Assembly: GCA_049965455.1 (NCBI GenBank)
Contig: JBMFWH010000001.1
Coordinates: 2,874 to 66,873, forward strand
Direction: 5' to 3'
Source: Thermoplasmata archaeon
GTDB taxonomy: Archaea > Thermoplasmatota > Thermoplasmata > Thermoplasmatales > ARK-15
DNA: 64,000 nt
Position numbers and translations under genes: made by a program. Of this stretch, positions 12,400 through 64,000 are shown one piece after another (the first letter of the stretch is position 1; every line of letters begins with the position of its first letter). The notes under the pieces were generated by a model. It made no database searches. It was not told the DNA's origin and saw only the letters and a list, made by a program, of their open reading frames with translations.

Positions 12400-12450
12400 A
12401 GTTACTGCGAATAAAAAAAATATATATATGTTTGAGCATTACCAATTAAC

Positions 12451-12482: not shown

Positions 12483-12489
12483 AGTTAAA

Positions 12490-13041: not shown

Positions 13042-13051
13042 AGTGGTGAAA

Positions 13052-15414: not shown

Positions 15415-15675
15415 TTTTTTTAATTTATAAAAGTTGTTTCATAGATTATGTTCGTTAGATCTTCTGATATGAGAATTTTTTATTTGACCTGCTATTCTCT
15501 ATGCTGAGACTTTAGTGTTTATCAAGCCTGATACCCTCTATCTCTAGATTCACAGTGCACAGTATCTATTTACATATGTAAAAAAATACTCAATCTTTAT
15601 GTTAACTTACATCATAACATCCCCCGGTCACAAAAATTAAAAAAACTTAATAACTTTAACGTATATAACACACTT

Positions 15676-18039: not shown

Positions 18040-18082
18040 AGTATTTAAATAAAAACATATATCATGAGAAGGTGATCATAAT

Positions 18083-40113: not shown

Positions 40114-40176
40114 TTAAAATAAACTTTAAAAAAATAAAGTAAACTTTAAATAACGCCCGTAAATTATCTATATTTG

Positions 40177-42252: not shown

Positions 42253-42971
42253 ACATTAAATGGTTTCAGAAGATAAGTCTGATAGAATACCCTGATAAAA
42301 TAGCAATGGTACTATTTAGTGCTGGGTGCAATTTCAGGTGTCCATTCTGCTATGTGCCACAGCTGGTGATACCAGAAAAATATATGACTATTGAACCTGT
42401 TAGCAGTGAAAAGATATTTTCTTATCTGGAACGTGTCAAGAAAATGATAGATGCAGTAGTGATCACGGGAGGAGAGCCTACTGTTAACGAAGATCTGCCA
42501 GATATGCTGAGAAAGATCAAGAGTTTTGGATATTTAACAGGGATATATACCAATGGAACCAATGATATGATGATACGCGAAATAATAGATGAAGGCATTA
42601 TAGATTATATTGCAATGGATATAAAAACAAGGCTTGATATGGTTTCATACAGCAAAGTTACAGGAACAAACATTGACAATAAAACATTAGAAAGCATTAA
42701 AAAATCCATTAAAATAATCATGGGTTCGAATATTAATTATGAATTCAGGACCACTTTAGTGAAGGAACTCCATTCAATGGAAGACATATGGGAGATATGT
42801 CAGTATATCAAAGGTGCAAGAATCTATTATCTTCAAAACTTGTTCAATGCAACATATTTAGGCGCTGGAAAACTTAGTCCATATCCTTTAAATGAACTTC
42901 AAGCCTTGATTTCAAGATGCAAAAACATCGTAAATGCAAAGTACAGGAATCAAAATAGAAGCAAATATTAA
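42249..42971 (+). CDS. nrdG: class III RNR activating radical-SAM enzyme
   Basis: 240 aa. CNFRCPFCY radical-SAM cluster motif. 4-nt overlap with nrdD. Confidence 0.85.
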   Translation: MNIKWFQKISLIEYPDKIAMVLFSAGCNFRCPFCYVPQLVIPEKYMTIEPVSSEKIFSYLERVKKMIDAVVITGGEPTVNEDLPDMLRKIKSFGYLTGIYTNGTNDMMIREIIDEGIIDYIAMDIKTRLDMVSYSKVTGTNIDNKTLESIKKSIKIIMGSNINYEFRTTLVKELHSMEDIWEICQYIKGARIYYLQNLFNATYLGAGKLSPYPLNELQALISRCKNIVNAKYRNQNRSKY

Positions 42972-46466: not shown

Positions 46467-48779
46467 TTAAAGGTCACATTTTCCAGTCTGGCAAGCAGGA
46501 TCAAAAGTGGCACTTACTTTCAGATACTCCTCGTTTTCTTTCTTTTCTAGTATCAGATCTAGTGACTTAACCTCCCTGTCCGCTTTATTCTTATTGCCAG
46601 AACCTTTATATATCACCTGAACGCTCTTGCTGCCATCCCTGTATATTGTTATGCCTTTGCATTTTAATCTGTAAGCGTCTAGATACGATTTTTCCACATC
46701 GATCATCGTAGCATCGTTTCTCAGGTTTATGGTTTTTGAAACAGCATTATCCACATACTTCTGAAACGCGGCCTGCATTAATACATGCCATTTTGGGTCA
46801 ATGTCATGGGCAGTAATATATATCTTTTTTGCATCGTCGGGAATGTCCAGATGCTGGACTGATCCAGTCTTTGCAACCTCTGCCATGAGTGCCTCAGAAT
46901 AAAACCCATGTTTTTTAGAGTACTCTTCAAACAGCGGATTAATTTCAAGTAGCTGTGTGCCATCCATCACGTTTCTTATAAATGCGAGCGCAAATAAAGG
47001 CTCGATGCTGGACGTAGTATCCGCTATTATGGAAATTGTGCCGGTAGGTGCGATCGTGGTAGTGGTCGCATTGCGCATCTTTCTGGGATACCATTTTGAC
47101 TCTTTCCAAGCCGGGAAGTTGCCTCTTTTTTCAGCAAGTTCTTCGCTCATCTGATGGCTTTCATCGTTTATGAATTTCATTACTTTCTCTGCAATGTCCA
47201 AGGCCTCGTCAGAGTCATACGGCACATTTAGCTTGAGTAACATCTCTGCAAAGCCCATCACTCCCAGCCCTATTTTTCTGGTGAGTTTGGTCATCTCTTC
47301 GATGCTTTTTAATGGGAATTTATTGGCGTCAATTACATTGTCCAGAAAATGAACAGATTCCCTGACAATCTCTCTAAGCAGATCCCAGTCTATCTTTCCG
47401 TCAGTAACGACAAGAGAGAGGTTAATAGACCCTAGGTTACAGGATTCATATGGCAATAACGGTTGTTCCCCACACGGATTTGTGGACTCGATCTCTCCTA
47501 ATTGCGGCGTTGGATTTTTTCTATTGATCTCATCGATAAATATTATGCCTGGATCTCCTGTCTTCCAAGCCTGTGATATTATCAGGTCCCAGACTTTCTT
47601 TGCGTTTTCGGTTCTAACAACGCTTTTATCCCTGGGATTATAGAGGTTGTACTGTGAGTTGGAAAATAATGCGTCCATAAACTCATCAGTGACTGCCACG
47701 GATATGTTAAAATTGCTGAATATCTTGTTGTCTGAATCTTTAGAAGTGATAAAATCCAGAATATCGGGATGATCCACCCTCAAAATGCCCATATTTGCGC
47801 CCCTTCTTTTTCCACCCTGCTTGATCACGTCTGTAGCCACATCAAATATTCTCATGAAAGATAATGGGCCAGAAGCAACACCTTTTGTAGATCCTACAAG
47901 GTCCCCAGAGGGCCTGAGCCTCGAAAACGAGAATCCGGTTCCACCTCCAGACTTGTGAATCAATGCTGCATTTTTTACGGCATCAAAAATGCCGTCCATG
48001 GTATCTTCAACAGGTATTACAAAACATGCAGAAAGTTGCCCGATATTGGTAGAGGCATTCATCAATGTCGGAGAGTTTGGCATAAAGTATTTCTGGCTCA
48101 TCAAATTATAAAATTTTACAGCTGTATCTAATATGCTGTCTTCCTTGTCATTCAGTATTTTCAGAACTTTTGAAAATGGTACTTTCATCATTTTTTCGTT
48201 ATTAAGATAGCTATATGCATGTTTCAGCATATTATATTCGACTGAGGATAGGTTATGGTCTGTATCTTCAATATTCCAAATTTTCTGTGTCGCATTTTTA
48301 TCAAATATTTCATCAATGTAGAGAATATCGATCATGGCAATATATTTTGAAACACGTTCATACATCTGCCTTGGCGTTTCTATGATTTCACCTTTTTCGT
48401 TTTTCAATAAATACCTGTTTTCAAGGACCTTAATGGCGTTAATAGAATGTTTTAGATCATCTTTCACGCCATATGACTTCTTAATTTCCCTGATCAGTTT
48501 TCTCTTTTCCCTGTATATTATATATGCTTTAGCAACTTTAGTATACCCTTCAACCATAAGCACTTCTTCTATAATGTCCTGGATCTCTTCAACTTTAGGA
48601 GTGGTAATGTGCTCCATTTCAAGCTTTTTCACTACCTTCTCAGCTAATTTTTTTGAAGTGCCATAATCTTCAGAATCAACTGATTTTAGTGCTTTGTATA
48701 TTGCGTTAATTATCTTTTTAATATCGAAAGCCGCGACGCTTCCGTCTCTCTTAACAACACTCTCAATCATAAAAATCAC
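46467..48779 (-). CDS. nrdJ: adenosylcobalamin-dependent (class II) ribonucleotide reductase
   Basis: 770 aa. ATP-cone ([16 protein letters not shown]), [13 protein letters not shown], active-site NPCGEQPL and a C-terminal redox tail CQTGKC. Confidence 0.9.
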
Positions 48780-49664: not shown

Positions 49665-51521
49665 TTATACCCCCACATCAGTAATGAGATCTGACAGGTC
49701 CATGATCTGCAACTTCACTTTTGTGGGCACTCCTTCCCTGGACCAGCCACGTACCTGATAGTAGTCATCAAGCATCTTTTGCAGCTCTTCTTCTTTTACG
49801 TACGATCCTTTAGACACGCCTTTAGGGATAGGATCATGCGTCACACGATACGGTAACTTGTCATCTTTTCTCGACAATCCTTCTCTGACATTAAAGCTTT
49901 TTTGTATATTGTAAGATCTCTCTCCGACAAGCATAAGCTCTGACGGGCTCATGTCAAATCCAGTCGCCGCATATATAAGGTCAGGAAAACCCTCAAGGAA
50001 AAACATATGCCTTGAAAATTTGCACATTCCTACAGTATCATAGACGGTCATCAAATCTTCCATGGTCTTGACTTCAAATCCCTTGTTATTGGCTGATAAC
50101 CTGTCTATGCCCTCAAATTTCCACCATTTTCCAGTCAGCTCCAGTCCATATACACCCGCAGTCAAATGGCAGGCTCCCCTGACAGATACCGCTTCGGCAA
50201 GAGCCATGCCTTTTATGCCTCTCACATCATATGCGGGTGGTTCAAGACCTTTTACATGCATTGCGAACTCTTCCCCTTTTCCAAGCTTTTCTACGGCACT
50301 TTTCACGCCATCTGCCAATAAGTTTCCTAGATATCCCTCTCTGAAAGCCATCTCTTTCAACAGCTTTGCTGTACCTTCAACGTCTCCGAATTTTGGAGCA
50401 TCCAGCAATATTCCTCTTTCTCGAGCCTCCATTGCCCATGAGATAGTCAATCCTGCAGAAATGGTATCAAATCCATACAGGTCGCATAATAGATTTAAAT
50501 ATGCTACCGCCTCAGGATCATCAACTTCAAGATTCCCACCTAAAGAGTAAAGTGTTTCATACTCGATTCCATCCACTGACACGCCCTTGTATTTTCCGTC
50601 TTTTATCTCGAACATGTGCCCGCAAGGCTTGTTGCAGTTAGGGCAAGGATGAAACTTCTTTGCATAAATAGGTGCCCAGTAATAGGGATCAATATGCGAT
50701 TTCTCGCCCTCTTTTAGGGTATCAAACGCGCTCTGAAAATATCCTTGCTGCCAGTTTCTGGATGGGAATGTACCACGCTGGGTGTTCATCCAGCTATAAA
50801 ACTCGCCAGTGCCATAATTCATATCTTCTTTTGCAGCAGGGTGCTCTCTCAGTATCTTTGCCCATTTTTGTACCAGTTCTTTAAAATGCTGCGGATCAAA
50901 TATTTCTATTGATCCAGAACCTTTTACAGCTAATCCTTTTAATTTTTTAGAGCCGAACACAGCACCAATACCTGTTCTTGCCGCCTGCCGCTCTTCACAA
51001 TCCACGCCTCCAATTTTTGACAGGTTTTCTCCAGAAGGCCCTATTGCGGCAGTTGCTACTTTGCCATATATCTCTTTTAGCTTGTTCTGTGTCTCTCTAG
51101 TATCTAACCCCCACAGATCTGTTTTCTCTATTTTTATGTTATTATCATCTATGCTTATAACGACAGGCTCTTTGCTCTTTCCTTTGATTATCATCAGATC
51201 ATAGCCTGCTTTTTTGAGATGCACTCCTAACGTGGCACCAACCACAGCTCTTCCCAAGCCTCCTGTAGCCGGAGATTTCGTCAAAAAAACAGTTTTTGAA
51301 GCAGTTGGCACACCTATAGGCACAAACAATCCAGGCGCTATGATGATAGGGTTCTGTTCATCAAATGCATCCGTACCTTTTTTAGAGTCTCTGTAAAGAT
51401 AATAAGAAGCAAGTGCTAGACCACCAAGATATCTCCTCGCAATTTTTTGATCTAGTTCTTCTTCTGAAACCTGGCCAGCAGTCAAATCTATTTTCAAAAT
51501 CTTACCTGTAAATCCGAACAT
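49665..51521 (-). CDS. aor: aldehyde:ferredoxin oxidoreductase family (tungstopterin) enzyme
   Basis: The likely start MFGFTGKILKIDLT (51521) lies inside tracked ORF 49665..51590. The AOR N- and C-domain pattern runs throughout. Confidence 0.85.
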   Translation of the reverse strand: MFGFTGKILKIDLTAGQVSEEELDQKIARRYLGGLALASYYLYRDSKKGTDAFDEQNPIIIAPGLFVPIGVPTASKTVFLTKSPATGGLGRAVVGATLGVHLKKAGYDLMIIKGKSKEPVVISIDDNNIKIEKTDLWGLDTRETQNKLKEIYGKVATAAIGPSGENLSKIGGVDCEERQAARTGIGAVFGSKKLKGLAVKGSGSIEIFDPQHFKELVQKWAKILREHPAAKEDMNYGTGEFYSWMNTQRGTFPSRNWQQGYFQSAFDTLKEGEKSHIDPYYWAPIYAKKFHPCPNCNKPCGHMFEIKDGKYKGVSVDGIEYETLYSLGGNLEVDDPEAVAYLNLLCDLYGFDTISAGLTISWAMEARERGILLDAPKFGDVEGTAKLLKEMAFREGYLGNLLADGVKSAVEKLGKGEEFAMHVKGLEPPAYDVRGIKGMALAEAVSVRGACHLTAGVYGLELTGKWWKFEGIDRLSANNKGFEVKTMEDLMTVYDTVGMCKFSRHMFFLEGFPDLIYAATGFDMSPSELMLVGERSYNIQKSFNVREGLSRKDDKLPYRVTHDPIPKGVSKGSYVKEEELQKMLDDYYQVRGWSREGVPTKVKLQIMDLSDLITDVGV

Positions 51522-52906: not shown

Positions 52907-53410
52907 ATGCATAAAATGACAGAAGCGGCTTTAAAAGAAGCCTATGCCGGAGAGAGTCAAGCGCACATGAGATACCTGATTTTTGCAGACGTCGCTGAAA
53001 AGGCGGGATTTAAAAATGTGGCAAGGCAGTTCAGAGCAATTGCCTATGCAGAACAGATACATGCCACAAATCATTATAAGAACCTGGGAATGATCAGAGA
53101 TTCTTCGCAGAATCTGCAGGTAGCAATTGACGGAGAAGCTTATGAAGTAGAGGAGATGTATCCTGTATTTAATCAAACAGCAAAATTTCAGAATGAGAAA
53201 GGAGCTGAGATGAGCACTCACTATGCTTTGGAAACCGAAAAAGTTCATTTACAGATGTACAAGGATGCAAAGAAAGCTGTGGATGAGAAAAAGGATATTG
53301 ATCTCGGAGACATTTACATATGTACTGTCTGTGGATTCACGGTTATAGGTAAGTTGCCTGAAAAATGTCCTGTATGCGGAGCACCTGCATCGGCGTTCAA
53401 GAAATTCTAA
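52907..53410 (+). CDS. rbr: rubrerythrin
   Basis: Diiron four-helix motifs (E..AH.RY, E..H) plus a C-terminal rubredoxin-like CTVCG...CPVCG. Confidence 0.9.
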   Translation: MHKMTEAALKEAYAGESQAHMRYLIFADVAEKAGFKNVARQFRAIAYAEQIHATNHYKNLGMIRDSSQNLQVAIDGEAYEVEEMYPVFNQTAKFQNEKGAEMSTHYALETEKVHLQMYKDAKKAVDEKKDIDLGDIYICTVCGFTVIGKLPEKCPVCGAPASAFKKF

Positions 53411-53458
53411 AAATGTTTGGAATTTCTATTTTTTATTTTGTGAATAGAGGCATATAAA

Positions 53459-53881
53459 ATGTTAAAAGAGAACGATAATGTAGTGTTCGTTAACACCTAC
53501 TTGCCTGAAAAAGCAAGCGGAAAGTGGGTAGTGTTATACTTTTACCCTGCAGACTTCACGCCGGGATGCACAAGAGAGGCACAGGAATTCAGGGACTTAA
53601 AACCGCAGTTTGACGCAGAGAATGTTGAAATAGTGGGCGTAAGCGTGAAGAGCGAAGAGATACAGAGCAGATTTAAAGAGAAGTACAATCTGAATTTCAG
53701 CCTTATTAGCGACAAAGACAAGGTTTTAATAGAGAAGTTTGGAGTAAACTCGATGGGTAGGGCAAAAAGAACCACTTTTATTCTTGATGCAGATCGAAAG
53801 ATCAGAAAAGCATGGGAAAAAGTGAGCGTAAATGGTCACGCTGAAGAAGTTTTAAAATTTATAAAAGAGGTGAAAAAATGA
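53459..53881 (+). CDS. bcp: peroxiredoxin (Bcp type)
   Basis: 140 aa. Active site [12 protein letters not shown]. Confidence 0.85.
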
Positions 53882-54039
53882 GCGATAAATATCAATGTTC
53901 GGTTTGTGGATACATATATGATCCAGAGCAGGGAGATCCTGACAATGGCGTAAAGGCAGGTACTGATTTTGTAAATATACCGGCAGACTGGGTATGTCCA
54001 GTATGCGGCGCCCCAAAGGATATGTTTGAAAAGATATGA
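53878..54039 (+). CDS. rubredoxin (53 aa, absent from the supplied ORF track)
   Basis: My own translation is [53 protein letters not shown]. Both CxxCG knuckles are present. ATGA overlap with the bcp stop. Confidence 0.9.
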
Positions 54040-54049
54040 AGGTGTAAAA

Positions 54050-55786
54050 ATGGTAAAAGTCGATGATTTGGCAATAAAGATTGGGGGACAGGCAGGAGAC
54101 GGTTCTCTGGCCACGGGAGAAGTTTTAGCAAAAGCCTATAAGAAGATGGGATTGAATGTGGCCACAGACAAGGATTTTCCGTCCAGAATAAGGGGGGGAC
54201 ATACCAGCTATACTATTCGTGGCGCAAAAAAGTCAGTGTATAGCATTGGAAATAACATAGATGTACTGCTTGCGTTTGATGAAGACTCTATAAAAATAGA
54301 CCTGCCAGAACTAGCTGATGATGGGGTATTGATTTTTGATAACAGCAAGGCAGATTTAAACATACAACCAAACAACTTTAAAATTTACAAGATCCCTCTC
54401 GCAAACATGGCCAAGACGGAACTTGGGCTGGAACTAATAAAAAACACATTGGCACTGGGTGTGATCAAAGTTCTATTTGATCTTGATTCAAACGTGTTTA
54501 AAGATACGATAAAAGAGATGTACAGCAACAAGAGTGCGAAGATAATTGACGAGAACATCAAGGCATTTGAGCTTGGAGAAGCTTATGCTTCCGAGCATTT
54601 TGAGAAAGTAAGCAACTACAAGGTTCAGAAATACGAGGACAGCAAAGAGCGGATGCTCATAATGGGAAACGAGGCGATAGGAATTGGAGCGATAATAGCA
54701 GGATGCAGGTTCATAGCAGCCTATCCTATCACGCCCGCATCTGACATATTAGAGTACATGGCCCGCTTTTTGCCAGAGCAGATGGGCGTGGCAATACAGG
54801 CCGAGGTTGAAATTGCAGCAGTGAACATGGCGATCGGTGCCTCATACGCGGGAGCAAGAGCAATGACTGTTACTTCAGGGCCCGGTCTGGACCTGAAAAC
54901 AGAGGCAATAGGGTTAGCGGGAATGATCGAGACCCCGCTGGTGATAGTAGAGGCGCAGAGGGCAGGACCGAGCACTGGCATGCCCACAAAGACAGAGCAG
55001 TCTGACATAAATCATGTGACGGTGGGAGGGCACGGTGAGATTCCAAGAATAGTAATAGTTCCAGGCACTGTGGAAGAAGCATTTTATTTTACAGTCTCCG
55101 CGTTCAACTTTGCAGATAAGTACCAGTGCCCGGTGATAATACTTACCGATGAGCTGATAAGCTGGAACAAGCAGACTACCAGGAGATTCGATCTTGATAA
55201 ATTGAGCATAGATCGTGGCAAGTTATTGCTGAACATAGACTCTATTGATCGTGAATTTAAGAGATACTCGTTCCAGGAAGATGGCATATCTCCAAGACCG
55301 ATACCTACCGTGAAAAACGGCGTACATCTCGAAACAGGAGATGAGCATGATGAGTACGGGCATATCACCGAAAAGGTAGATCTTAGAAACAGAATGATGC
55401 AAAAGAGGATGCACAAGCTTGACATTGCAGCGAAAGAATTGTACGATTGTGTCACGTATGGCGAAGAATCTGAAAATATAGTGATCGGAATAGGATCCAC
55501 AAAAGGCCCAATACTGGAAGCAATGGAATATCTGAAAGATAAGCGGATAAATTTAAAATTTGTCAGAATAAGAACCTTATGGCCATTTCCAGCAGAGGAG
55601 CTTAGAGGACTGTTAAAAAATGCAAAGCGCATATTTGTGGTAGAAAACAATTACACAGCGCAACTGGCAACTCTTATTAGATCCCAGCTCGGAACTTTGA
55701 ATATCATATCGATCCTGAAATATGATGGTCGAGCATTCAAGCCCCGGGACATTTATAAGAAAATAGAAGAGGTGATTAAACAATGA
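54050..55786 (+). CDS. 2-oxoacid:ferredoxin oxidoreductase, fused gamma-alpha subunit
   Basis: Gamma-like N-terminus GGQAGDGSLATGEVLAKA, then an alpha domain (AAYPITPAS). ATG at 54050. Confidence 0.85.
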   Translation: MVKVDDLAIKIGGQAGDGSLATGEVLAKAYKKMGLNVATDKDFPSRIRGGHTSYTIRGAKKSVYSIGNNIDVLLAFDEDSIKIDLPELADDGVLIFDNSKADLNIQPNNFKIYKIPLANMAKTELGLELIKNTLALGVIKVLFDLDSNVFKDTIKEMYSNKSAKIIDENIKAFELGEAYASEHFEKVSNYKVQKYEDSKERMLIMGNEAIGIGAIIAGCRFIAAYPITPASDILEYMARFLPEQMGVAIQAEVEIAAVNMAIGASYAGARAMTVTSGPGLDLKTEAIGLAGMIETPLVIVEAQRAGPSTGMPTKTEQSDINHVTVGGHGEIPRIVIVPGTVEEAFYFTVSAFNFADKYQCPVIILTDELISWNKQTTRRFDLDKLSIDRGKLLLNIDSIDREFKRYSFQEDGISPRPIPTVKNGVHLETGDEHDEYGHITEKVDLRNRMMQKRMHKLDIAAKELYDCVTYGEESENIVIGIGSTKGPILEAMEYLKDKRINLKFVRIRTLWPFPAEELRGLLKNAKRIFVVENNYTAQLATLIRSQLGTLNIISILKYDGRAFKPRDIYKKIEEVIKQ

Positions 55787-56640
55787 ACGATCCTAAATTT
55801 TATGATAAAGAAAAGCCTACATGGTGCCCAGGATGCGGGGATTATGGAGTTTTGATGGCATTGAAGAAGGCAGCGGCAGAGCTAAACCTCGACCCTGCAA
55901 ACACGGTCGTGGTGACCGGTATCGGATGCTCTGCTAAGCTTAGCAGCTATTTTTACAGTTACGGGCTTCACGGAATACATGGCCGCGCACTGGCTCTGGC
56001 TACAGGCGTGAAACTTGCAAATCCGCAATTGACAGTAATAGCTGCAGGCGGTGATGGCGATGGCTATGCAATAGGCATGGAACATTTTATGCATACGGCC
56101 AAGAGAAACATAGACATCACGTATGTTATCATGGATAACCAGATTTACGGGCTTACCAAGGGCCAATTCTCGCCAACGAGCAATGAAGGGTTTGTGACAA
56201 ATACCTCCCCGTTCGGAAATATCGAAACGCCTGTAAACGGACCTTTGCTAGCACTGGCAGCAGGTGCTACTTACATTGCGAGAGGCTTTGTTGGAGACAT
56301 TAACCAGGTTGCAGAGCTGATCAAAGGTGGTATAGAGCACAGGGGATTTTCGCTGATAGATATATTCAGCCCTTGCGTTACGTGGAACAAGGTAAACACC
56401 TATGACTGGTACAAGGCAAACACCTATGACCTGAGATCTGTGAACCATGATTTTAGAGATAAACAAAAAGCATTCGAAGTGCTATTAAACGAACAGAAGT
56501 TCCCGCTGGGATTGATATACAAGGAAGAGAACAAGAAAACATACGAATCACTGGCCCTAAAACATCCGGAAAAGCCAATGGCACTGCAAAAGCTCAAGGA
56601 TCCGAAAGAATACGAATCACTATTAGACGTATTCGTGTAA
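55783..56640 (+). CDS. 2-oxoacid:ferredoxin oxidoreductase, beta (TPP) subunit
   Basis: WCPGCGDYG and GGDGDGYAIG motifs. 4-nt overlap with the alpha gene. Confidence 0.9.
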   Translation: MNDPKFYDKEKPTWCPGCGDYGVLMALKKAAAELNLDPANTVVVTGIGCSAKLSSYFYSYGLHGIHGRALALATGVKLANPQLTVIAAGGDGDGYAIGMEHFMHTAKRNIDITYVIMDNQIYGLTKGQFSPTSNEGFVTNTSPFGNIETPVNGPLLALAAGATYIARGFVGDINQVAELIKGGIEHRGFSLIDIFSPCVTWNKVNTYDWYKANTYDLRSVNHDFRDKQKAFEVLLNEQKFPLGLIYKEENKKTYESLALKHPEKPMALQKLKDPKEYESLLDVFV

Positions 56641-57420
56641 TTTTACTTTTTTATATATTTCCACTATTTTTTTAGCCTGTTCTTCCACAGTGCCCTCTAT
56701 ATACTCTTTTTTTCGGGCTGGAGGCACGGTCTCTGTAAGCTTTGCAACGGTTGTATAAGAGCCGTTCAGCCCCGTCTCATCATCTTTCAGGCCCAGGTCC
56801 TTGGCGGTCCATACAGTCACCTTGAAATCTTTGTCAGCCCATCTTTTTCTTTTAAAGTCCGGGAAACGGGGCTGATTCACGCCCAGCTCTATGCTCAGTA
56901 GCGCTGGAAGCGTGGATTCTAATATCTCATGCCCCCCTTTTATTGTGCGTTTTGCCCTAACGTACGTATCGGATACGTCAAGGCTTGACACAAATGTGAT
57001 CTGCGGAATATCCAAAAATTCAGCCATCTGTGCTGGAACCTGAGAAGTACCGCCATCAGAAGACTCTTCGCCGCATAGCACGAGGTCATATGTGCCAATA
57101 TTCTTAATGGCATGTGCCAGTACCAGTGCTGTCGCATAAGAGTCTGCGCCGGCAAAAGCACGATCAGAGAGCAATACGGCATCATCTGCACCCATCGCAA
57201 TGCTCAGCTTTAAGTGTGTTTCGAAAAATGGTGGGCCCATAGATATGATAGTCACTTTCCCGCCCATCTTAGCACGAACTTGCAATGCGTATTCTAGCGC
57301 ATTTTTGTCAGCCTCGTTGATCTGGTTTTCTGCATGAGCTCTGTTGATGGTTTTCGTAACAGGATCAAAAGATATGTCTTCTGTTTTTGGCACTATTTTC
57401 ATTGCTACTATAATATTCAT
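56623..57420 (-). CDS. etfB: electron transfer flavoprotein, beta subunit
   Basis: 265 aa. N-terminus IVAMKIVPK and the LCGEESSDGGTSQVPAQMAE motif. Confidence 0.9.
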   Translation of the reverse strand: MNIIVAMKIVPKTEDISFDPVTKTINRAHAENQINEADKNALEYALQVRAKMGGKVTIISMGPPFFETHLKLSIAMGADDAVLLSDRAFAGADSYATALVLAHAIKNIGTYDLVLCGEESSDGGTSQVPAQMAEFLDIPQITFVSSLDVSDTYVRAKRTIKGGHEILESTLPALLSIELGVNQPRFPDFKRKRWADKDFKVTVWTAKDLGLKDDETGLNGSYTTVAKLTETVPPARKKEYIEGTVEEQAKKIVEIYKKVKLHEYV

Positions 57421-58388
57421 TGTCCGTTCATCTCCTTAATCAGTGCTGGCAGCAATTTCATTGCGTCAGCAACCACGCAGTAATCTGCATAATTGAAAAT
57501 ATTAGAGTTTCGGTCATTGTCAACCGCGATCACGATCTTGCAGTTTGCAATTCCGGACACAAAATGCTCAGCGCCGCTTACTCCCAGCACCAGCGCGAGC
57601 CTAGCTTTCAATGATATGCCCGTAGAGCCAATCTGTATGTCTCTCGGAGCAAGTCCTCTATCTGCCAGAGGCCTTGTAACACCTATTTCAGTTTTCGCAG
57701 CCTTTGCAAATGCGGTTGCAAGAGCCATGTTAGAAGCCACACCATTTCCAGCAACAGTGACAAACTCGGATCTTGAGATGTCTACAAACTCTTTTTTAAC
57801 TTGTTCGATCACTCTTACCCTGCTCACAAAATTAGTGAGGTCTGGCTCGATAACTTCAATCTTTCCAGACCTGGTCTCGTCCATGCTCTTCTCAAATATT
57901 CCAGGTCTCACAGTAGACATCTGCGGCCTGTTCTTTGTGCATACAATCTCTGCTATGACTTTACTGCCATAGCCGGGCACTCCTGCATACAGCGTCAAGT
58001 TCTCGTCAATGTCTAGGGATATGGCGTTGGCAGTCAACCCTGTTTTCAATCTTGCCGCAATACGCGCTGCAAGGTCCCTGCCATTATATGTGCCACCGAG
58101 CAAGAATATGTTCGGTTCTCGTATCCTGACCAGATCTGTTATGCACTTTGTGTAATAGTCAGTACTGTATTTTTCAAATGCCGGGCTTTTTAAAAATATG
58201 ACTTCATCCGCACCGTACTTTATCGCAATTTCTCCAAGATTGCCAGGATCAGTACCCAGAATCAGTCCCACTACTTTCTCATTCACTTTTTTTGCGAGTG
58301 TTTTGGCTCTTGAAAGAATTTCCAATGACACATCCTCAAACTCTTTATTTTCATGCTCCAGATAAACCCAGATACCTCTCGAGTTCAT
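57417..58388 (-). CDS. etfA: electron transfer flavoprotein, alpha subunit
   Basis: 323 aa. C-terminal FAD motif LVLGVSGAEHFVSGI...IVAVDNDRNSNIFNYADY. Confidence 0.9.
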   Translation of the reverse strand: MNSRGIWVYLEHENKEFEDVSLEILSRAKTLAKKVNEKVVGLILGTDPGNLGEIAIKYGADEVIFLKSPAFEKYSTDYYTKCITDLVRIREPNIFLLGGTYNGRDLAARIAARLKTGLTANAISLDIDENLTLYAGVPGYGSKVIAEIVCTKNRPQMSTVRPGIFEKSMDETRSGKIEVIEPDLTNFVSRVRVIEQVKKEFVDISRSEFVTVAGNGVASNMALATAFAKAAKTEIGVTRPLADRGLAPRDIQIGSTGISLKARLALVLGVSGAEHFVSGIANCKIVIAVDNDRNSNIFNYADYCVVADAMKLLPALIKEMNGQ

Positions 58389-59515
58389 AATATCACATCT
58401 CTCAATATCTCTGCCAGATCCTTCACCTCTATGCCCAAGGACCGGGTCTTTGAACTGTCATGCAGGTTCATGTTGCAGTATGGGCATGCAGTGACCAGAA
58501 TCTCAGCGCCAGTCTGCTTTGCCTCGTCAGTCCTGACGTCAGCAAGCCTCTTTCCATGAAACTCCAAAAACATCCTGTTTCCGCCACCGCCACAGCAAAT
58601 GCTCTCTTCTTTCGCGTTTTTCATCTCTTTCAGTTCTAATCCATGAATATTCTGCAGCATCTCTCTAGGCCCATCGTTAAAATGGTCGGTTCTGCTCAGT
58701 ATGCAGGGGTCATGATACGTGACTTTCAGATCCTTCGAATTTTTAAAGTCGATCACTCCCTCCATGTAAAGCTGGTAAAAATACTCTGCATAATGCATCA
58801 CTTTCACGTCAAGCCCAAACTTTGTGTACACTTCCTTGAACGTGTTGGAACAGTGTGGAGAAACGGTAACAATCACTTTTGCATTCGTGTTTTTAAAATC
58901 GTTGATGTTCTTTGTTGCTAGCTCTTCCATATAGTCCCATTCTCCCGCGTTTCTTAGAGGCTCGCCACAACAAAGCTCTTCATTGCCCAGTATTCCAAAA
59001 TCTATGTTTTTGGCTTTTAGAATCTCTGCAATAGCTTTGGTCACACTGTGTATTCTTTTGTCATACGCTGCTTCGCAGCCCACATATAAAAGAACATCCA
59101 CACCTTTCTTCGCATCCTTAATCTGCATGCCTTCTGCCCATTTTGCCCTCTCTGATTTCTTTCCGCCCCAAGGATTGCCGTTTTCATAAATGTCCCACAC
59201 CACCTTCTCTATCTTTTCAGGTACTTTATGCTCTTCAAACGCCAGCTTTCTGAGCCCTAACAGCACATTCACAATTTTTACGTCTCTCGGGCATGTGGTT
59301 TCACAGAGCTTGCAAGTGGCACAGCTCCATAAGTTGTCAGTGTAGTCAATGCCGATCTGCGCAGAACGAACCAGTTTCCGGACGTTCAGCAGATCATCAG
59401 ATACTGCCCCGATCGGGCATCTGGCAGTGCATACTCCACACTGATAGCATATGTTTCCAACGTTTTCTGTAAGCTCATTTACATGCTCCCAGCGGCTATC
59501 ATCTATATTAATCAT
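58385..59515 (-). CDS. HdrD-like iron-sulfur oxidoreductase (2x[4Fe-4S] plus two CCG domains), apparently soluble
   Basis: CYQCGVCTARCP and CATCKLCETTCP. CCG modules VGCEAAY...ELCCGEP...SPHC and HDPC...ICCGGGG...ACPYC. No hydrophobic helices. Confidence 0.85.
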   Translation of the reverse strand: MINIDDSRWEHVNELTENVGNICYQCGVCTARCPIGAVSDDLLNVRKLVRSAQIGIDYTDNLWSCATCKLCETTCPRDVKIVNVLLGLRKLAFEEHKVPEKIEKVVWDIYENGNPWGGKKSERAKWAEGMQIKDAKKGVDVLLYVGCEAAYDKRIHSVTKAIAEILKAKNIDFGILGNEELCCGEPLRNAGEWDYMEELATKNINDFKNTNAKVIVTVSPHCSNTFKEVYTKFGLDVKVMHYAEYFYQLYMEGVIDFKNSKDLKVTYHDPCILSRTDHFNDGPREMLQNIHGLELKEMKNAKEESICCGGGGNRMFLEFHGKRLADVRTDEAKQTGAEILVTACPYCNMNLHDSSKTRSLGIEVKDLAEILRDVIL

Positions 59516-62500
59516 GATTTCACCCCCTTCAGCTTTGCTGGTGTTTCATGAATTTCGTCTTTAGAAAGCTCTTTTATAAGCTTGTCCATCTCCCTAATCT
59601 TGTACGCAAACCTGTTTCCCTCAGCAGCACTGACCCACCAAAGCTGCAGCCGGTCTGGATTAATGTTTCTGTTCTGCAAAAACTTGCGCCATCGTTCAAC
59701 CCTCTTCTCTGTATCCACGTTCGCATTGATGTAATGGCAATCATTGATGTGGCATCCTGTAACCAACACTGCAGCCACACCACGCTCAAAAGCGCGCATT
59801 ACTAGCTTTTGTGAAATCCTGCTTGAACACATGGTTCTTATCACTCTCGCGCTGGAAGGATACTGGATCTTTGAGATTCCAGCCTGGTCTGCGCCTGCAT
59901 ATGAACACCAGTTACATGCAAACACTACCAGTTTCTCGTCCGCATTAGTCTCCGTTGCAGCATCCACCTGCGTCAGAATCTCGGCATCCGTGAAGTTGGG
60001 CATGGATATCGCGTTTGTTGGGCATTCTGCTATACAGTCTCCACAGCCCATACACATTGCCGGCACAATCTCTACATGCTTTTTCAACTCTCCCTTGATC
60101 GCCCCGTACGGGCAGACAGTAGTGCATTTCATGCATTTTATGCACTTGTCCTGATCAATGTACGCAATAAGCGGCTCTTTCGTGATCTTATCCTTGAATA
60201 GTATCTTTGAGGCTTTGGCTGCAGTTGCCAGACCTTGCATCATTGACTCTTTTGCATCTTTTGGCCCCTGCGCAGTGCCTGCCAGGAACACACCAGAAAC
60301 CGCAGCTTCTACAGGCCCCAGTTTAGGGTGCAGTTCTAACAGAAATCCTTCTTGATCCTTCGATAGTTTTAGCTGATTTATTATTTCGTTATCTTTCGGC
60401 ACCAATCCTATATTCAGGACCAGCAGATCAGTAGGTATGTTGAGAGTTTCGCCAGTAAGCTCATCAGGTATCGTCACCGCACCATTTTCAAACTTTACTA
60501 CCTCTTCCGGTACCTTCTCCTGGTCATATTGGAAAAACTGCACTCCCTCATCGCTCGCTTTTTTGTACAGTTCTTCCGCAAACCTTGCATATGCCCTAAT
60601 ATCTTTGTAAAGAACCCTCACTTTTTTGCCCTTCTCTCGCAATCTGATAGCCTGATTAAGCATTGTGGAACAGCAAAATCGAGAACAGCCACGATCCTTG
60701 GTCCTGGACCCTACGCATGATACAATCGTGATTTTATCCTCCTTTATGTCATTTATCCTCTTCTCCAGTTCCATAGAGGTCATGATGTTTCCAGGGCTGA
60801 ACTCTTTCGGTTCGTAAGGATCCGCACCAGTAGCCATCACTATAGCTCCACTGCTTATGTTCCCCCCATCTGATAACTGGATATTGAAATTGCCAACAAA
60901 CCCGGTCACCGTTTTAACGGTGGTCGATAAATGTATCTTTGCACCAGACTGCTCAAGCTCTTTTATTTTCATGTCCAAAAGCTCTTTTGCATCCTGTCCC
61001 ATCGGCGCAAGATCACTTAGGTTATTTAACAACCCACCTAACTTATCCTCTTTCTCAATTAAATGTGTGCTAATTCCCATCTTTTCCAGTGCTGTCGCAG
61101 CAGTTATGCCCGCGATGCCACCACCCACAACTACCGCAGTATGAGTGACAGGAATTTCCATCTCTTCCAGAGGTTCTAAATAGCGAGCCTTTGCTACAGC
61201 CATATCCACCATATCAAACGCTTTTGCAGTCGCTGCCTCTTTCTCGTTTTTATGAACCCAAGAATCCATGTTCCTCACATTTGCCATTTCGAACAGATAT
61301 GGATTTAAGCCGGCCCTGGCGCAAACTCTCTGAAATGTTATGCCATGCGTCTTTGGAGAGCATGCACCAACCACCACCCTGTTCAGGTTGTGTTCTCTGA
61401 TCTTTGAAACCATGCTGTCCTGTGTGCTGCCAGCACAAGTATACTTATTCTCTTCCACGTAAACCACATCTTTTATACCTTTAACCCGTTCTTTCACGCT
61501 TTTAACATCCACCACGCCCGCAATGTTAGACCCACAATCACACAAAAATACGCCTACACGAGGCTCTGGTGTGAGCTCTAAAGGCTCTGCAACAGGCATC
61601 TTGATCCATATCTTTTCATCTATGTACTGCAAAGATTCTGCTGCAGCAGCAGAAGCTTCCGTCACGCTGTCTGGTATGTCTTTTGGCCCAGACGCGCAGC
61701 CAGCTATAAATATGCCCTCTCTAGTACTTTTTACCGGGCTAGAGGCAGCGATCTTGAAAAAGCCGTCTTTGTCAAGCTCTATCCCCAGCACTGTAGAAAG
61801 CTCTTTCGTGCCCTTGCTGGGTATTGCAGCTGTGGCCAATACAACCATGTCATAACTCTCTTCGACCACTTTCTCGTTTTCAAAGCTTTCATAACGAACC
61901 TTGATATGCTCTCCCTCTCTCCTGATATTAGAGGGCCTCGAGCGTATGTATCTTACCCCACTCTCTTTCGAGCGATTGTAAAACTCGTCAAAGCCCTTGC
62001 CATAGGCTCTGATGTCCATGTACAGAAGCGTGATGTTTTTTATGCCATGATCCTTGGCCTGTATGGACTCTTTTACAGAATACATACAGCAAAACCGAGA
62101 ACAGTATGGCACGTACCTCTGGTCCCGCGAGCCTGCACATAACACAAACAATACGTTTTCAGGCTCTTTGTGCGTGCTTGGAACTATTACTTCGCCATCG
62201 CTGGGTCCGGCAGCATTGATCAATCTCTCAAATTCCATAGACGTCAAAATATCTGGATCAGTACCGTACCCAAACTCTTTCAGCAGGCTGGCATTGAACA
62301 ACTCAAATCCTGTGGCAACAATGATTGCGCCTACATTTTCAGTGATATGCTTTGGCCGCATGTTAAAATCTATGGCGTTTGGACCACATGCATTCATGCA
62401 CCTGTTGCATGGCAGGTAGTTTGGCGGCTCGTTAAGGCAGCTGTCTATGTCTATCACATACATTCCTGGCTCTGCCTGACTGTAAGGAGTATAAATCGCT

Positions 62501-62889
62501 TTTCTGACACCTACTCCATAATCAAACTCGTTTTTGCGTAGCTGCGGGCACGCCTGAGTGCATAGATCACAGGTTGTGCATGCACTGGTAACGAATCTAG
62601 GTTTTTGATATATCGACACAGTAAAGTTACCCTCCTTTCCCTCCACTTTTTCTACCTCAGAAAGAGTTAGCACGGTGATATTGGGATTATGTGTTACATC
62701 GCTCATCTTTGGAGCCTCTATGCATATTGAGCAATCCAGCGTGGGAAAGTTTTTGTCCAGCCCCGCCATCTTCCCACCTATTGCAGCGCTGCGCTCTACC
62801 AGTATTACCTTTGATCCGGCTTCTGCAAGATCCAGAGAAGCCTGTATGCCCGCAATCCCGCCACCAATAATAAGTACAGAATCACTCAT
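59512..62889 (-). CDS. hdrA: tandem HdrA-like flavoprotein fused to ferredoxin and MvhD domains
   Basis: 1125 aa from the ATG at 62889. Two FAD modules (IIGGGIAGIQASLDLAEAG and VVGGGIAGITAATALEKMG), an FLCDCGSNIAG Cys module, CIKCMKCTTVCP and CMGCGDCIAECP, and a C-terminal MvhD signature FACNWCSYAGADQAG...GCHINDCHY. Confidence 0.85.
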   Translation of the reverse strand: MSDSVLIIGGGIAGIQASLDLAEAGSKVILVERSAAIGGKMAGLDKNFPTLDCSICIEAPKMSDVTHNPNITVLTLSEVEKVEGKEGNFTVSIYQKPRFVTSACTTCDLCTQACPQLRKNEFDYGVGVRKAIYTPYSQAEPGMYVIDIDSCLNEPPNYLPCNRCMNACGPNAIDFNMRPKHITENVGAIIVATGFELFNASLLKEFGYGTDPDILTSMEFERLINAAGPSDGEVIVPSTHKEPENVLFVLCAGSRDQRYVPYCSRFCCMYSVKESIQAKDHGIKNITLLYMDIRAYGKGFDEFYNRSKESGVRYIRSRPSNIRREGEHIKVRYESFENEKVVEESYDMVVLATAAIPSKGTKELSTVLGIELDKDGFFKIAASSPVKSTREGIFIAGCASGPKDIPDSVTEASAAAAESLQYIDEKIWIKMPVAEPLELTPEPRVGVFLCDCGSNIAGVVDVKSVKERVKGIKDVVYVEENKYTCAGSTQDSMVSKIREHNLNRVVVGACSPKTHGITFQRVCARAGLNPYLFEMANVRNMDSWVHKNEKEAATAKAFDMVDMAVAKARYLEPLEEMEIPVTHTAVVVGGGIAGITAATALEKMGISTHLIEKEDKLGGLLNNLSDLAPMGQDAKELLDMKIKELEQSGAKIHLSTTVKTVTGFVGNFNIQLSDGGNISSGAIVMATGADPYEPKEFSPGNIMTSMELEKRINDIKEDKITIVSCVGSRTKDRGCSRFCCSTMLNQAIRLREKGKKVRVLYKDIRAYARFAEELYKKASDEGVQFFQYDQEKVPEEVVKFENGAVTIPDELTGETLNIPTDLLVLNIGLVPKDNEIINQLKLSKDQEGFLLELHPKLGPVEAAVSGVFLAGTAQGPKDAKESMMQGLATAAKASKILFKDKITKEPLIAYIDQDKCIKCMKCTTVCPYGAIKGELKKHVEIVPAMCMGCGDCIAECPTNAISMPNFTDAEILTQVDAATETNADEKLVVFACNWCSYAGADQAGISKIQYPSSARVIRTMCSSRISQKLVMRAFERGVAAVLVTGCHINDCHYINANVDTEKRVERWRKFLQNRNINPDRLQLWWVSAAEGNRFAYKIREMDKLIKELSKDEIHETPAKLKGVKS

Positions 62890-63400
62890 GTTTAATCCCC
62901 TCCTTATATCCTCTCTCAAACGCTTCAATGTTCACCTGCTCATATTTTGGAAACCTGCGCCTTATTGCAGATGTGGCAGAATCCTTGGAAATAACCTGCG
63001 AAGCGCCTGCAAAAGCTCCTAACATCACAATATTAGTAACTCTGCTGTTCTTCAATGATTCTGCAATCTCTTTTGCAGGAACTGCTATCGCGTTTGAACC
63101 TTCATAGTCTACAATGCTGCTCTCCAGTATTATTATTCCGTCCTGTTTCAAGTTTTGAATGTTTGTGTCTAACCCTTCCTGTGTTAAAGTGATTAAAAAG
63201 TCTAGCCCAGTTACCATCGGATAGTCTATATGTTCATCCGAGATAATCAGGTCTGCGCGGGACCAACCTCCGGTTACATAAGGGCTGTACTCTTCAGTCA
63301 TGATCACGCTTTTTTTATCTTCAATCGCTGCCTCTCCTATTAGATGCCCTATCGTAATGATCCCCTGCCCCCCGGATCCATATACTCTCAACTCTTTCAC
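62882..63400 (-). CDS. 2-oxoacid:ferredoxin oxidoreductase, gamma subunit
   Basis: 172 aa with a GTG start. YGSGGQGIITIGHLIGEAA motif. The stop overlaps the hdrA-like start by 8 nt. Confidence 0.85.
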   Translation of the reverse strand: MKELRVYGSGGQGIITIGHLIGEAAIEDKKSVIMTEEYSPYVTGGWSRADLIISDEHIDYPMVTGLDFLITLTQEGLDTNIQNLKQDGIIILESSIVDYEGSNAIAVPAKEIAESLKNSRVTNIVMLGAFAGASQVISKDSATSAIRRRFPKYEQVNIEAFERGYKEGIKHE

Positions 63401-64000
63401 TATTTTTCACCTCTTGCGATCTTAATCAACCTCTGCTCTGATTCTAAATATGATTCTCTCTGCTTGTTAACAAAATCCCCCACCACGATAGGCTTTTTTG
63501 AAGATATGTCAATGCCTATCTCTTCCAATTTTGCGTTATTGTCCACGACCGAATAGTTTCTGTAATGGTCCATCTCTGCCAGACCATCTGAAAAACTGTT
63601 GTACTTCCCAAAATTTGGAGGACATGGTGACAGAATTTCAATGAATGCAAACCCTTTCACTTTCATAGCATTCTGGATCGAATTGACAAGCTGCCTGACA
63701 TGCAGGGTGGTCCATCTAGCAACATAAGACGCACCCAACGCAGTCATCATGTACGGTAAATTGAAACTTTGTTCTGCATTTCCGAATGGTGTGGAAGAGG
63801 TTCTTGCACCTGTGGGCGTGGTAGAACCATGCTGCCCACCAGTCATGCCATAGTTGAAATTGTTCACGCAGATCACTAATAGGTCCATGTTCCTGCGTGC
63901 AGCATGGATTATGTGGTTTCCTCCTATATTGAACAGGTCTCCATCACCACTTATTATCGCGACTTTCAGGGCTGGATTTGCAATCTTCATGCCCGTGGCA
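63400..64000 (-). CDS. 2-oxoacid:ferredoxin oxidoreductase, beta (TPP) subunit (5' end off-window)
   Basis: The frame is open to the window edge. TPP motif ISGDGDLFNIGGNH. The stop shares 1 nt (TAGTG) with the gamma start. Confidence 0.85.
   Translation of the reverse strand, partial: ATGMKIANPALKVAIISGDGDLFNIGGNHIIHAARRNMDLLVICVNNFNYGMTGGQHGSTTPTGARTSSTPFGNAEQSFNLPYMMTALGASYVARWTTLHVRQLVNSIQNAMKVKGFAFIEILSPCPPNFGKYNSFSDGLAEMDHYRNYSVVDNNAKLEEIGIDISSKKPIVVGDFVNKQRESYLESEQRLIKIARGEK

Follow-up and report, generated by a model that had tools for sequence, protein, structure and literature searches.

The window analysed here is a stretch of 64,000 nucleotides from a Thermoplasmata archaeon (contig JBMFWH010000001.1 of assembly GCA_049965455.1, positions 2,874 to 66,873), and its minus strand, from position 56623 to the window end, carries six genes of an eight-gene operon that very likely encodes one functional module of a non-methanogen, centred on a bifurcating flavin of the HdrA type. 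The operon joins a four-subunit 2-oxoacid:ferredoxin oxidoreductase (OFOR) to a fused HdrA dimer with an MvhD domain, a protein with two CCG domains and an electron-transfer flavoprotein (Etf), in the order delta-alpha-beta-gamma-double HdrA/MvhD-CCG protein-EtfA-EtfB. From the genes alone, we tentatively propose a model in which the products form one soluble bifurcating or confurcating complex, with a core like the BamDEF proteins of class II benzoyl-CoA reductase (BCRII), the OFOR on the low-potential arm, a non-bifurcating, NAD(H)-linked Etf on the CCG arm and ferredoxin at MvhD. What homology supports is a predicted bifurcating flavin of HdrA type, from which three cluster chains lead off, together with a CCG wire and a partner Etf; which partner sits at which port we infer. 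A preliminary description of the same DNA had suggested a single HdrA-flavin module, and this idea is supported by the conserved gene order and by a core that is homologous, domain for domain, to BamDEF.

The six open reading frames run head to tail at the coordinates and with the overlaps first described, and Pfam assigns them as OFOR beta, OFOR gamma, HdrA/MvhD, CCG protein, EtfA and EtfB, as had been proposed. The alpha subunit, presumed to lie off-window, was found together with a delta subunit upstream of beta on locus L001 (contig JBMFRU010000002.1, GCA_049967915.1, a Thermoplasmata archaeon metagenome-assembled genome, MAG), which represents the window in the comparisons below. The genes and the five junctions between the six in the window are as follows.

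L001 3839-4135, off-window: OFOR delta, a ferredoxin subunit with 2x[4Fe-4S], 98 amino acids (aa) (Pfam Fer4)
L001 4138-5277, off-window: OFOR alpha, 379 aa (Pfam POR_N/PFOR_II)
L001 5274-6116: OFOR beta, full gene, 280 aa
63400..64000, minus strand: OFOR beta, thiamine pyrophosphate (TPP)-binding, 3' part (Pfam TPP_enzyme_C, 7.9e-25); the gene runs off the window
62882..63400, minus strand: OFOR gamma, 172 aa (Pfam POR, 9.1e-36; NCBIfam 2-oxoacid:ferredoxin oxidoreductase gamma)
59512..62889, minus strand: BamE/BamF-type fusion joining a fused HdrA dimer to an MvhD domain, 1125 aa (Pfam: two Pyr_redox_2/FAD stretches, Fer4, FlpD)
58385..59515, minus strand: BamD/HdrD/EtfD-like CCG protein, 376 aa (Fer4_8 and two CCG stretches; Pfam CCG, 1e-35)
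57417..58388, minus strand: EtfA, 323 aa (Pfam ETF and ETF_alpha; no N-terminal ferredoxin domain)
56623..57420, minus strand: EtfB, 265 aa (Pfam ETF)
63400, minus strand: OFOR beta/gamma junction, TAG/GTG overlap
62882-62889, minus strand: OFOR gamma/HdrA-like junction, 8-nt overlap ATGAGTGA, the gamma stop lying over the HdrA-like start
59512-59515, minus strand: HdrA-like/CCG junction, ATGA overlap
58385-58388, minus strand: CCG/EtfA junction, ATGA overlap
57417-57420, minus strand: EtfA/EtfB junction, ATGA overlap

All five junctions thus overlap when read directly in the sequence. A GGAGGGG ribosome-binding site stands upstream of the ATGAGTGA overlap, and the HdrA-like start, the ATG at 62889 that gives 1125 aa, matches the starts of homologues. 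An AT-rich spacer of 120 bp precedes the delta gene. No transmembrane-like segment was found in any operon protein (maximum KD19 1.52), and all eight products are predicted to be soluble. Within the 64-kb window no hydrogenase, formate dehydrogenase, HdrB/C or methanogenesis gene was found, in agreement with the preliminary description. Public annotation of these genes is generic ("hydrogenase iron-sulfur subunit", "(Fe-S)-binding protein", "FixAB").

One argument for one functional unit is the distribution of the gene order. In a homologue search seeded with the CCG protein and the HdrA-like protein, with contigs scored by tblastn with the window proteins, the same eight-gene order was recovered in 12 loci, of which 11 are distinct and two run into a contig end, from at least five phyla and two domains of life, so that the synteny first asked about for archaea extends to bacteria. 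These loci, defined by the OFOR-linked cluster and termed class I, are:

L001 (window), L002/L003 (Thermoplasmata-like metagenome contigs): Thermoplasmata
L004: 1.36-Mb metagenome contig
L005-L008, L010: Dehalococcoidia and Chloroflexota genomes
L088: Nitrososphaerales MAG
L089: Ca. Calditenuaceae archaeon HR02 (Aigarchaeota)
L090: Armatimonadota MAG

By tblastn, the HdrA-like protein is 52-66% and the CCG protein 38-59% identical to its window counterpart; the other proteins range over 31-67%. The gamma stop also overlaps the HdrA-like start in L002, L088, L089 and L090, where coordinates were compared, and the flanking genes vary between loci. Such conservation of order, beyond what chance would give, argues for one functional unit. 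The operon appears to have been transferred as a unit between archaea and bacteria, since identity across the domains is as high as identity across phyla within the archaea. At least 120 clusters (at 90% identity) of HdrA-like homologues of 1090-1166 aa, at least 54% identical, were found in the protein collection, those sources that are named being the same taxa, and the full cluster was present around all three that were picked for inspection. A separate contig scan returned, among the matches listed, mainly Bam clusters and EtfD-like genes at no more than 43% identity, with no close Thermoplasmata relatives. No published description of an OFOR-HdrA-CCG-Etf cluster was found in the literature searched, within which the earlier statement that no complex of this composition has been characterised also holds; one survey reports that double-HdrA/MvhD fusions are common in archaea, with only generic mentions.

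The central 1125-aa protein can be read against the cryo-electron microscopy structure of the BCRII of Geobacter metallireducens, Bam[(BC)2DEFGHI]2 (bioRxiv 10.64898/2026.04.10.717634). There, BamE is a fused HdrA dimer in which the N-terminal flavin alone bifurcates, with Lys280 at its N5 and Cys59-Cys62 near, and the second flavin is structural (bioRxiv 10.64898/2026.04.10.717634). Electrons from BamGHI come in by way of the C-terminal ferredoxin domain and the MvhD-like BamF; for the low-potential electron the way out is the inserted ferredoxin domain, which leads to BamC/BamB, and the high-potential electron passes the two cubane and two CCG clusters of BamD to an ETF that tomography shows docked on BamD in situ and that acts as high-potential acceptor at about +16 mV (bioRxiv 10.64898/2026.04.10.717634). 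BamD and BamE residues were mapped onto the window proteins through a Geobacter sp. MAG locus, L037 (offsets +6 for BamE and +1 to +4 for BamD). The domains of the window protein, three stretches of which match HdrA (5odc_A) and one MvhD (5odc_D), are:

61600..62889, minus strand: thioredoxin reductase (TrxR)-like flavin domain 1 with inserted 2x[4Fe-4S] ferredoxin domain, aa 1-430, aligning to HdrA residues 145-518
61150..61566, minus strand: HdrA N-terminal-type cluster domain, aa 442-580, aligning to HdrA residues 3-158, with CDCGSNI at aa 450-456
60175..61149, minus strand: TrxR-like flavin domain 2, aa 581-905, GGGIAG kept
59527..60174, minus strand: C-terminal 2x[4Fe-4S] domain (aa 906-980) and MvhD [2Fe-2S] domain (aa 984-1121) (FlpD, 6.7e-45; MvhD chains, 1e-33)

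Flavin domain 1 carries GGGIAG at aa 9-14, DCSIC at aa 52-56 and CCMYSVK with Lys273, and its Cys53/Cys56 (window 62722-62733) and Lys273 (62071-62073) correspond by alignment to BamE Cys59-Cys62 and Lys280. This domain is thus the predicted bifurcating FAD site. In the alignment with BamE, flavin domain 2 has neither the cysteine pair nor the lysine (CCSTMLN) nor an inserted ferredoxin domain, and, like its counterpart in BamE, it is predicted to play a structural role without bifurcating. Of the two complete HdrA modules first reported, then, both have the GGGIAG, but the Cys pair and the Lys are confined to the first; and where two ferredoxin motifs had been counted there are four, starting at aa 104 and 151-168 in the inserted domain and at aa 916 and 946 in the C-terminal domain. 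The HdrA parts (inserted ferredoxin domain, N-terminal cluster domain, C-terminal 2x[4Fe-4S] domain) are complete and permuted over two fused units, as in BamE. The C-terminal ferredoxin/MvhD part is the port of electron entry or exit in Hdr and BCRII (bioRxiv 10.64898/2026.04.10.717634). Along its length the protein is collinear with BamE(+BamF) from about 30 Bam clusters at 37-41% identity (query residues 5-978 or 5-1108 covered). An in-frame TGA stands at the Cys56 position in the orthologue of L005 (6772-6774, Dehalococcoidia CP070630.1), where the gene caller split the gene into pieces of 55 aa and 1078 aa, and in four BamE homologues (L013, L014, L019, L047). This TGA probably encodes selenocysteine, which in turn suggests that the Cys53/Cys56 pair is redox-active. 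The Bam loci L014 and L019 also have an in-frame stop other than TGA ahead of the MvhD part.

The Bam-type loci themselves number about 30 in the tblastn results and include Desulfobacterota, Geobacter and Syntrophorhabdaceae; in them a gene of the aldehyde:ferredoxin oxidoreductase (AOR) type is followed by a CCG protein, an Hdr-like protein of about 1000 aa and, in some, a separate MvhD gene, which is the bamB-(C)-D-E-F arrangement. In the class I loci the place of BamB/BamC is taken by OFOR delta-alpha-beta-gamma. An uncultured deltaproteobacterial Bam cluster, L013 (193-2913 and 7401-14893), has a four-subunit OFOR just upstream of bamB, 26-43% identical to that of the window, and this arrangement may hint at how an OFOR joined a BamDEF-like core. 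Further arrangements, in L045, L046, L048, L051-L053, L033 and L009, combine a BamD-like CCG protein with an HdrA-like gene that is single or split, without AOR, OFOR or Etf in the neighbourhood. A BamDE-like core appears to have been combined with further partner modules.

The CCG protein would extend this core on its high-potential side. It contains two cubane ferredoxin motifs (C23-C33 and C65-C75) and two intact CCG motifs (C147, C182, C183 and C222, four cysteines; C271, C307, C308, C344 and C347, five cysteines), and is 36-41% identical to BamD. Its best PDB match is EtfD (9ojn_A, 5.5e-52), over the soluble CCG part only (residues 399-739), and its family profile scores 272 bits to EtfD as against 92 to HdrC and 38-50 to HdrB. 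The maximum KD19 is 0.79, and there is accordingly no transmembrane segment; the EtfD-type membrane anchor is absent, and the protein is soluble as first described. The preliminary description had made it a reductase of a thiol, disulfide or sulfur substrate, which the comparison does not favour. The two characterised relatives, BamD and EtfD, are both ETF partners rather than disulfide reductases, and the CCG1 cysteines are lost in three of the 11 distinct orthologues (L005, L010 and L088, with VGD/SCG/SPHS and similar) that stand in the same operon. Since HdrB chemistry requires both clusters, a conserved disulfide-reductase function is unlikely, and the protein is better seen as a predicted ETF-docking electron wire. 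Three BamD residues are said to block the heterodisulfide site; in the window protein, His230 is replaced by Asn and the Trp by Phe, and the Tyr is kept.

The Etf subunits were examined for the hallmark motifs as defined or mutated in Ldh-EtfAB (PMC9232219) and in PMC5691135. Together, they score 133-196 bits against bifurcating Etfs (5OL2, 6FAH, 7QH2, 4KPU, 7KOE) and 57-92 against non-bifurcating ones (for EtfB alone, 133-166 and 57-89), which places this Etf, by sequence, in the bifurcating, two-FAD, NADH-binding lineage. The NAD-binding segment RxFxG of EtfB reads RAFAG (aa 87-91) and is kept in 10 of the 11 family members, L089 having KAFAG; transfer of NAD(H)-level electrons through Etf, as first suggested, is thereby plausible. 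The beta-FAD motif DGDTAQVGP reads DGGTSQVPA (aa 122-130), with D124 and G129 replaced; the family consensus is [SA]D[GSA][GAS]T.Q[VT]P, in which D, T and Q are found in all members, G is replaced in L004 and L089, and V in L088. The SPT anchor reads SYT (aa 221-223), and across the family SPT occurs in 4/11 and S.T in 11/11. The check for second-FAD residues that had been proposed is therefore answered in part, RxFxG being kept and the beta-FAD motif and SPT each partly kept. The EtfB recognition loop, NQPRFPDFKRKRW, is conserved (family form NQPRFPDF[KR]RKRW), and such strong conservation is as expected for a fixed partner.

A further hallmark lies in EtfA. In bifurcating Etfs an arginine of this subunit (C. 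difficile R136, LctC R205) forms a hydrogen bond with N5 of the beta-FAD, and in Ldh-EtfAB the R205A exchange fully abolished bifurcation and confurcation, while NADH:dichlorophenolindophenol (DCPIP) activity was retained (PMC9232219). In the window, this position is Val137 (57978-57980); in the OFOR-linked loci it is Val in 10/11 and Thr in 1/11, and in all other aligned Etfs it is Arg or Lys. The alpha-FAD motif SGAIQH reads SGAEHF (57561-57578; family SGA(E/A/S/F/M)(H/Q)F), with His replaced by Phe throughout. The suggestion that this Etf might itself bifurcate is therefore not supported. Because the NADH motif and most of the beta-FAD motifs are kept and the essential Arg is missing, the Etf would be demoted to a plain NAD(H) port, that is, a dedicated Etf in which NADH is still bound, a second FAD is probable, bifurcation is lost and the alpha-FAD environment is retuned. 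The cluster in L002/L003 is directly followed, at 13014-15064, by genes for a Rieske protein and for a fusion of EtfB with EtfA, 577 aa long, whose alpha-FAD motif is divergent (GISGHDNH).

The OFOR is predicted from its sequence to be of the four-subunit Oor/Kor type. Alpha scores 509 bits against the NCBIfam model NF006412 ("2-oxoacid:acceptor oxidoreductase subunit alpha"), above its cutoff of 411; the nearest NCBIfam models for beta, gamma and delta are those of 2-oxoglutarate (Oor/Kor) enzymes, with 2-oxoglutarate ferredoxin oxidoreductase beta the best for beta. All features of the type are present, namely alpha, TPP-binding beta, gamma and a delta with 2x[4Fe-4S], and the order delta-alpha-beta-gamma is that of oorDABC. 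A second OFOR, of two subunits (fused gamma-alpha plus beta), lies at window 54026-56640 on the plus strand, convergent to the operon, and its 3' end overlaps that of etfB by 18 nt (56623-56640). The Nitrososphaerales locus L088 likewise has an OFOR of two subunits near the cluster (16100-18707), and the pairing of an ordinary ferredoxin-reducing OFOR with an Hdr-coupled one may be recurrent.

The proposed mechanism assigns each partner to one of the three cluster chains. On the high-potential arm, electrons would pass from an HdrA cluster through the CCG protein to the alpha-FAD, the beta-FAD and NAD+. On the low-potential arm, the OFOR would be connected through its delta ferredoxin subunit to the inserted ferredoxin domain of flavin domain 1, the place held by BamBC in BCRII. 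The same low-potential place is that of formylmethanofuran dehydrogenase (Fmd), linked through a polyferredoxin, in the Hdr supercomplexes of methanogens; BamBC and Fmd would thus both be precedents for channelling electrons directly. Diffusible ferredoxin would then serve the C-terminal ferredoxin/MvhD port; since no gene of the cluster could supply a third enzyme and its surroundings differ between loci, the partners still to be accounted for are likely to be common soluble carriers. With an OFOR arm at about -500 mV and an NAD(H) arm at -320 mV, the middle couple would lie near their mean of about -410 mV, a typical ferredoxin potential. The proposed stoichiometry is

2-oxoacid + CoA + NADH + 4 Fd(ox) <-> acyl-CoA + CO2 + NAD+ + 4 Fd(red)

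and its logic would resemble that of NfnAB or of confurcating hydrogenases. Forward, in a peptide-fermenting anaerobe, NADH electrons would be raised to the level of ferredoxin and could leave as ferredoxin-dependent H2. In reverse, with a strongly reduced ferredoxin pool or in respiratory lineages, the complex could act as a boosted 2-oxoacid synthase.

Several points weigh against this model. Thermodynamic coherence is the only ground on which the OFOR was placed at its port, and a ferredoxin pool near -500 mV in vivo would disfavour the forward direction. Only part of the beta-FAD motif is preserved (SDG[GA]T.QVP as against DGDTAQVGP), so EtfB may hold AMP rather than FAD, and the alpha-FAD site is altered by the exchange of His for Phe. 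Some lineages that carry the cluster are apparently respiratory, and what the complex would gain them is less evident. Finally, with both CCG motifs intact and the blocking His230 replaced by Asn, a thiol substrate is possible in this organism.

An alternate scenario, which we regard as unlikely, would swap the ports. The OFOR would then be the donor at the C-terminal ferredoxin/MvhD domain, the Etf a high-potential acceptor delivering to acyl-CoA dehydrogenases or a quinone reductase, and the inserted ferredoxin domain would feed free ferredoxin or an unlinked enzyme far below -500 mV, for example an AOR/BamB-like tungstoenzyme with a difficult reduction to carry out. Such an arrangement would agree with every characterised Hdr complex, in which the co-encoded substrate dehydrogenase docks at MvhD (Mvh, Fdh, and BamGHI in the preprint), and with the high-potential role of the ETF of BCRII; in addition, an AOR-family gene lies 5 kb off in the window and an acyl-CoA dehydrogenase near the cluster in L089. 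However, no low-potential acceptor enzyme is conserved beside the cluster, and bifurcation would serve no purpose with NAD+ or ordinary ferredoxin accepting the electrons, since either has a potential above that of an OFOR donor (about -500 mV). Further, the operon Etf keeps its NADH segment, whereas BamOP-like and EtfD-associated Etfs are without it.

It is slightly less probable again that the operon merely co-transcribes separate enzymes, with an ordinary OFOR making reduced ferredoxin and an independent HdrA2-CCG-Etf complex using that ferredoxin together with NAD(H) and some third partner encoded elsewhere. BCRII of Geobacter receives its ferredoxin from a separate KGOR, the OFOR genes are merely near the Bam genes in L013, and none of the best 120 homologues showed an OFOR-HdrA fusion, nor were HdrA-CCG or CCG-Etf fusions found among them. 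However, every complete locus holds strictly to the gene order, all five loci compared, from distant phyla, show the overlap of gamma stop and HdrA-like start, and the window and L088 each have a second, two-subunit OFOR that would serve the ordinary reduction of ferredoxin.

It seems improbable that the operon encodes a plain 2-oxoacid dehydrogenase that depends on NAD+ and does not bifurcate, in which the Hdr-like and Etf proteins only wire the OFOR to NAD+ as an analogue of PadEFGHI. Such an enzyme would account for the weak PadE/G/I matches of the OFOR subunits, the kept NADH segment of EtfB and the missing bifurcation Arg of the Etf. However, the HdrA hallmarks (the Cys/Sec pair and the Lys) and three cluster chains off the flavin are hard to account for in a linear wire, about 1800 aa of redox protein would be superfluous, and no PadH/GltD-like subunit is present. 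More doubtful still is a CCG protein that acts as a true heterodisulfide-type reductase of a thiol/disulfide or sulfur carrier, with OFOR and Etf feeding or draining the HdrA flavin: the Hdr-type "supernumerary" cysteine in both CCG motifs of the window protein (CCG, where EtfD has CTG), the Asn at BamD His230 in class I and a best NCBIfam match to TfrB (thiol:fumarate reductase subunit; 190 bits, below cutoff) would suit it, but the loss of CCG1 cysteines in orthologues, the closest characterised relatives being electron wires to ETF, the lack of any linked thiol-cofactor or DsrC/TusA-type gene and the Etf gene directly next in all loci stand against it.

The model of one complex, with the OFOR on the low-potential arm and the Etf as NAD(H) port, would have consequences beyond this genome. 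To our knowledge, only about a dozen kinds of flavin-based electron-bifurcating (FBEB) enzymes are known, and none includes an OFOR. The cluster could, although we would put this a little lower than the model itself, represent a widespread and so far unrecognised FBEB class, in which an OFOR is built into an HdrA-type core, an Etf is repurposed as NAD(H) port, and 2-oxoacid/acyl-CoA, NAD(H) and ferredoxin are balanced reversibly. What is new is the combination of known modules together with the family-specific Etf, widespread in uncultured lineages. If the model holds, NADH would be upgraded in amino-acid fermentation, or reductive carboxylation boosted for CO2 assimilation, and models of redox balance and energy yield would change for Thermoplasmata, Nitrososphaerota, Aigarchaeota, Dehalococcoidia and Armatimonadota, lineages that are abundant and uncultured in sediments and hot springs. 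The complex would be the second natural combination of Hdr-type and Etf-type components, after BCRII, and the Arg-to-Val exchange a natural experiment on the change of an Etf from bifurcator to plain NADH dehydrogenase.

The rest of the window holds housekeeping genes and amino-acid permeases, a peptidase, aminotransferases, an AOR-family gene and oxygen-defence genes. The AOR-family gene, for a tungsto- or molybdopterin enzyme (AFOR_N and AFOR_C; 49665-51521, minus strand), lies beyond unrelated genes 5 kb from the operon; it scores 181 bits against the NCBIfam aldehyde:ferredoxin oxidoreductase model (cutoff 868) and is 24-33% identical to BamB-like genes. A trio of rubrerythrin, peroxiredoxin and rubredoxin (52907-54039, plus strand) stands between an aminotransferase and the two-subunit OFOR and, with a flavodiiron protein at 23984-25162, is consistent with an oxygen-exposed anaerobe. 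Within 9 kb, at 40174-42971 (plus strand) and 46467-48779 (minus strand), the window encodes an anaerobic class III ribonucleotide reductase (RNR) together with its activase (NrdD/NrdG) and another large RNR (ATP-cone and Ribonuc_red_lgN/lgC). The stretch from about 12000 to 16000 has a G+C content of 0.30-0.33, against about 0.41 elsewhere, and no Pfam matches except one ABC ATPase; it may be an acquired island.

Compared with known systems, the operon resembles several in part. An identity with FixABCX/EtfABCX was rejected, as there is no FixC/FixX. QmoABC of sulfate reducers has two HdrA-like flavoproteins, one with an MvhD-like domain, and an HdrC-like iron-sulfur protein. A weak NCBIfam match to QmoC was seen; the window flavoproteins are, however, fused and accompanied by CCG domains, and a QmoAB-type identity was rejected because there is no membrane QmoC and neither aprAB/sat context nor sulfate-reduction genes. 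With the phenylglyoxylate:NAD+ oxidoreductase PadEFGHI the operon shares the principle that OFOR electrons reach NAD+ via an extra flavoprotein, but its matches to the PadE/G/I NCBIfam models are far below cutoffs, a PadH-type subunit is missing and the extra proteins are of Hdr and Etf type.

The methanogen MvhAGD-HdrABC and Fdh-Hdr(-Fmd) complexes (5ODC, 7BKB, 8RVU) are the best solved matches of the flavoprotein and MvhD parts and share the bifurcating FAD environment. In Hdr-Fmd, low-potential electrons are channelled directly into the CO2-fixing enzyme Fmd. The window differs in having no HdrB/HdrC, CoM-S-S-CoB, hydrogenase or formate dehydrogenase, in the duplicated and fused HdrA, and in a high-potential partner that would be an Etf rather than a heterodisulfide. 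Among bifurcating Etfs, Bcd-EtfAB (5OL2), CarCDE (6FAH), Ldh-EtfAB (7QH2) and EtfABCX (7KOE) are the closest solved relatives, with RxFxG and part of the beta-FAD motif in common; the window Etf differs by Val for Arg in EtfA, the altered alpha-FAD motif, the replaced D124 and G129, and a predicted partner that is a CCG iron-sulfur protein rather than a flavin dehydrogenase. Mycobacterial EtfD (9OJN) has the same arrangement of two cubane and two CCG-bound clusters; it is an ETF:menaquinone oxidoreductase whose CCG-domain clusters accept electrons from ETF (PMC13083937). In contrast to this membrane protein with five transmembrane helices, which reduces menaquinone, the CCG protein of the window is soluble and has the Hdr-type CCG doublet.

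The closest comparison is with class II benzoyl-CoA reductase; in its working the system would correspond to that enzyme stripped of the catalytic and input modules. Membership of that class was rejected, as BamB/C and BamGHI are absent; no BamGHI (NuoEFG-like) genes were found in the window or within 8-10 kb of L001-L005 and L088-L090, and a four-subunit OFOR is present instead. The HdrA-like gene precedes the CCG gene, where Bam clusters have BamD-BamE, the window protein has an intact distal CCG motif, and the Etf is operon-encoded and of an NADH-binding lineage, not of the high-potential BamOP type. Nevertheless, the two systems have in common a fused HdrA dimer with the Cys pair and Lys at the N-terminal FAD only, the inserted and C-terminal ferredoxin domains, an MvhD adaptor that is fused in the window protein and apparently also in some Bam loci (tblastn match to residues 5-1108), and, on the high-potential arm, a CCG subunit of HdrD type that is paired with an ETF, at a sequence identity of 36-41% over full lengths.

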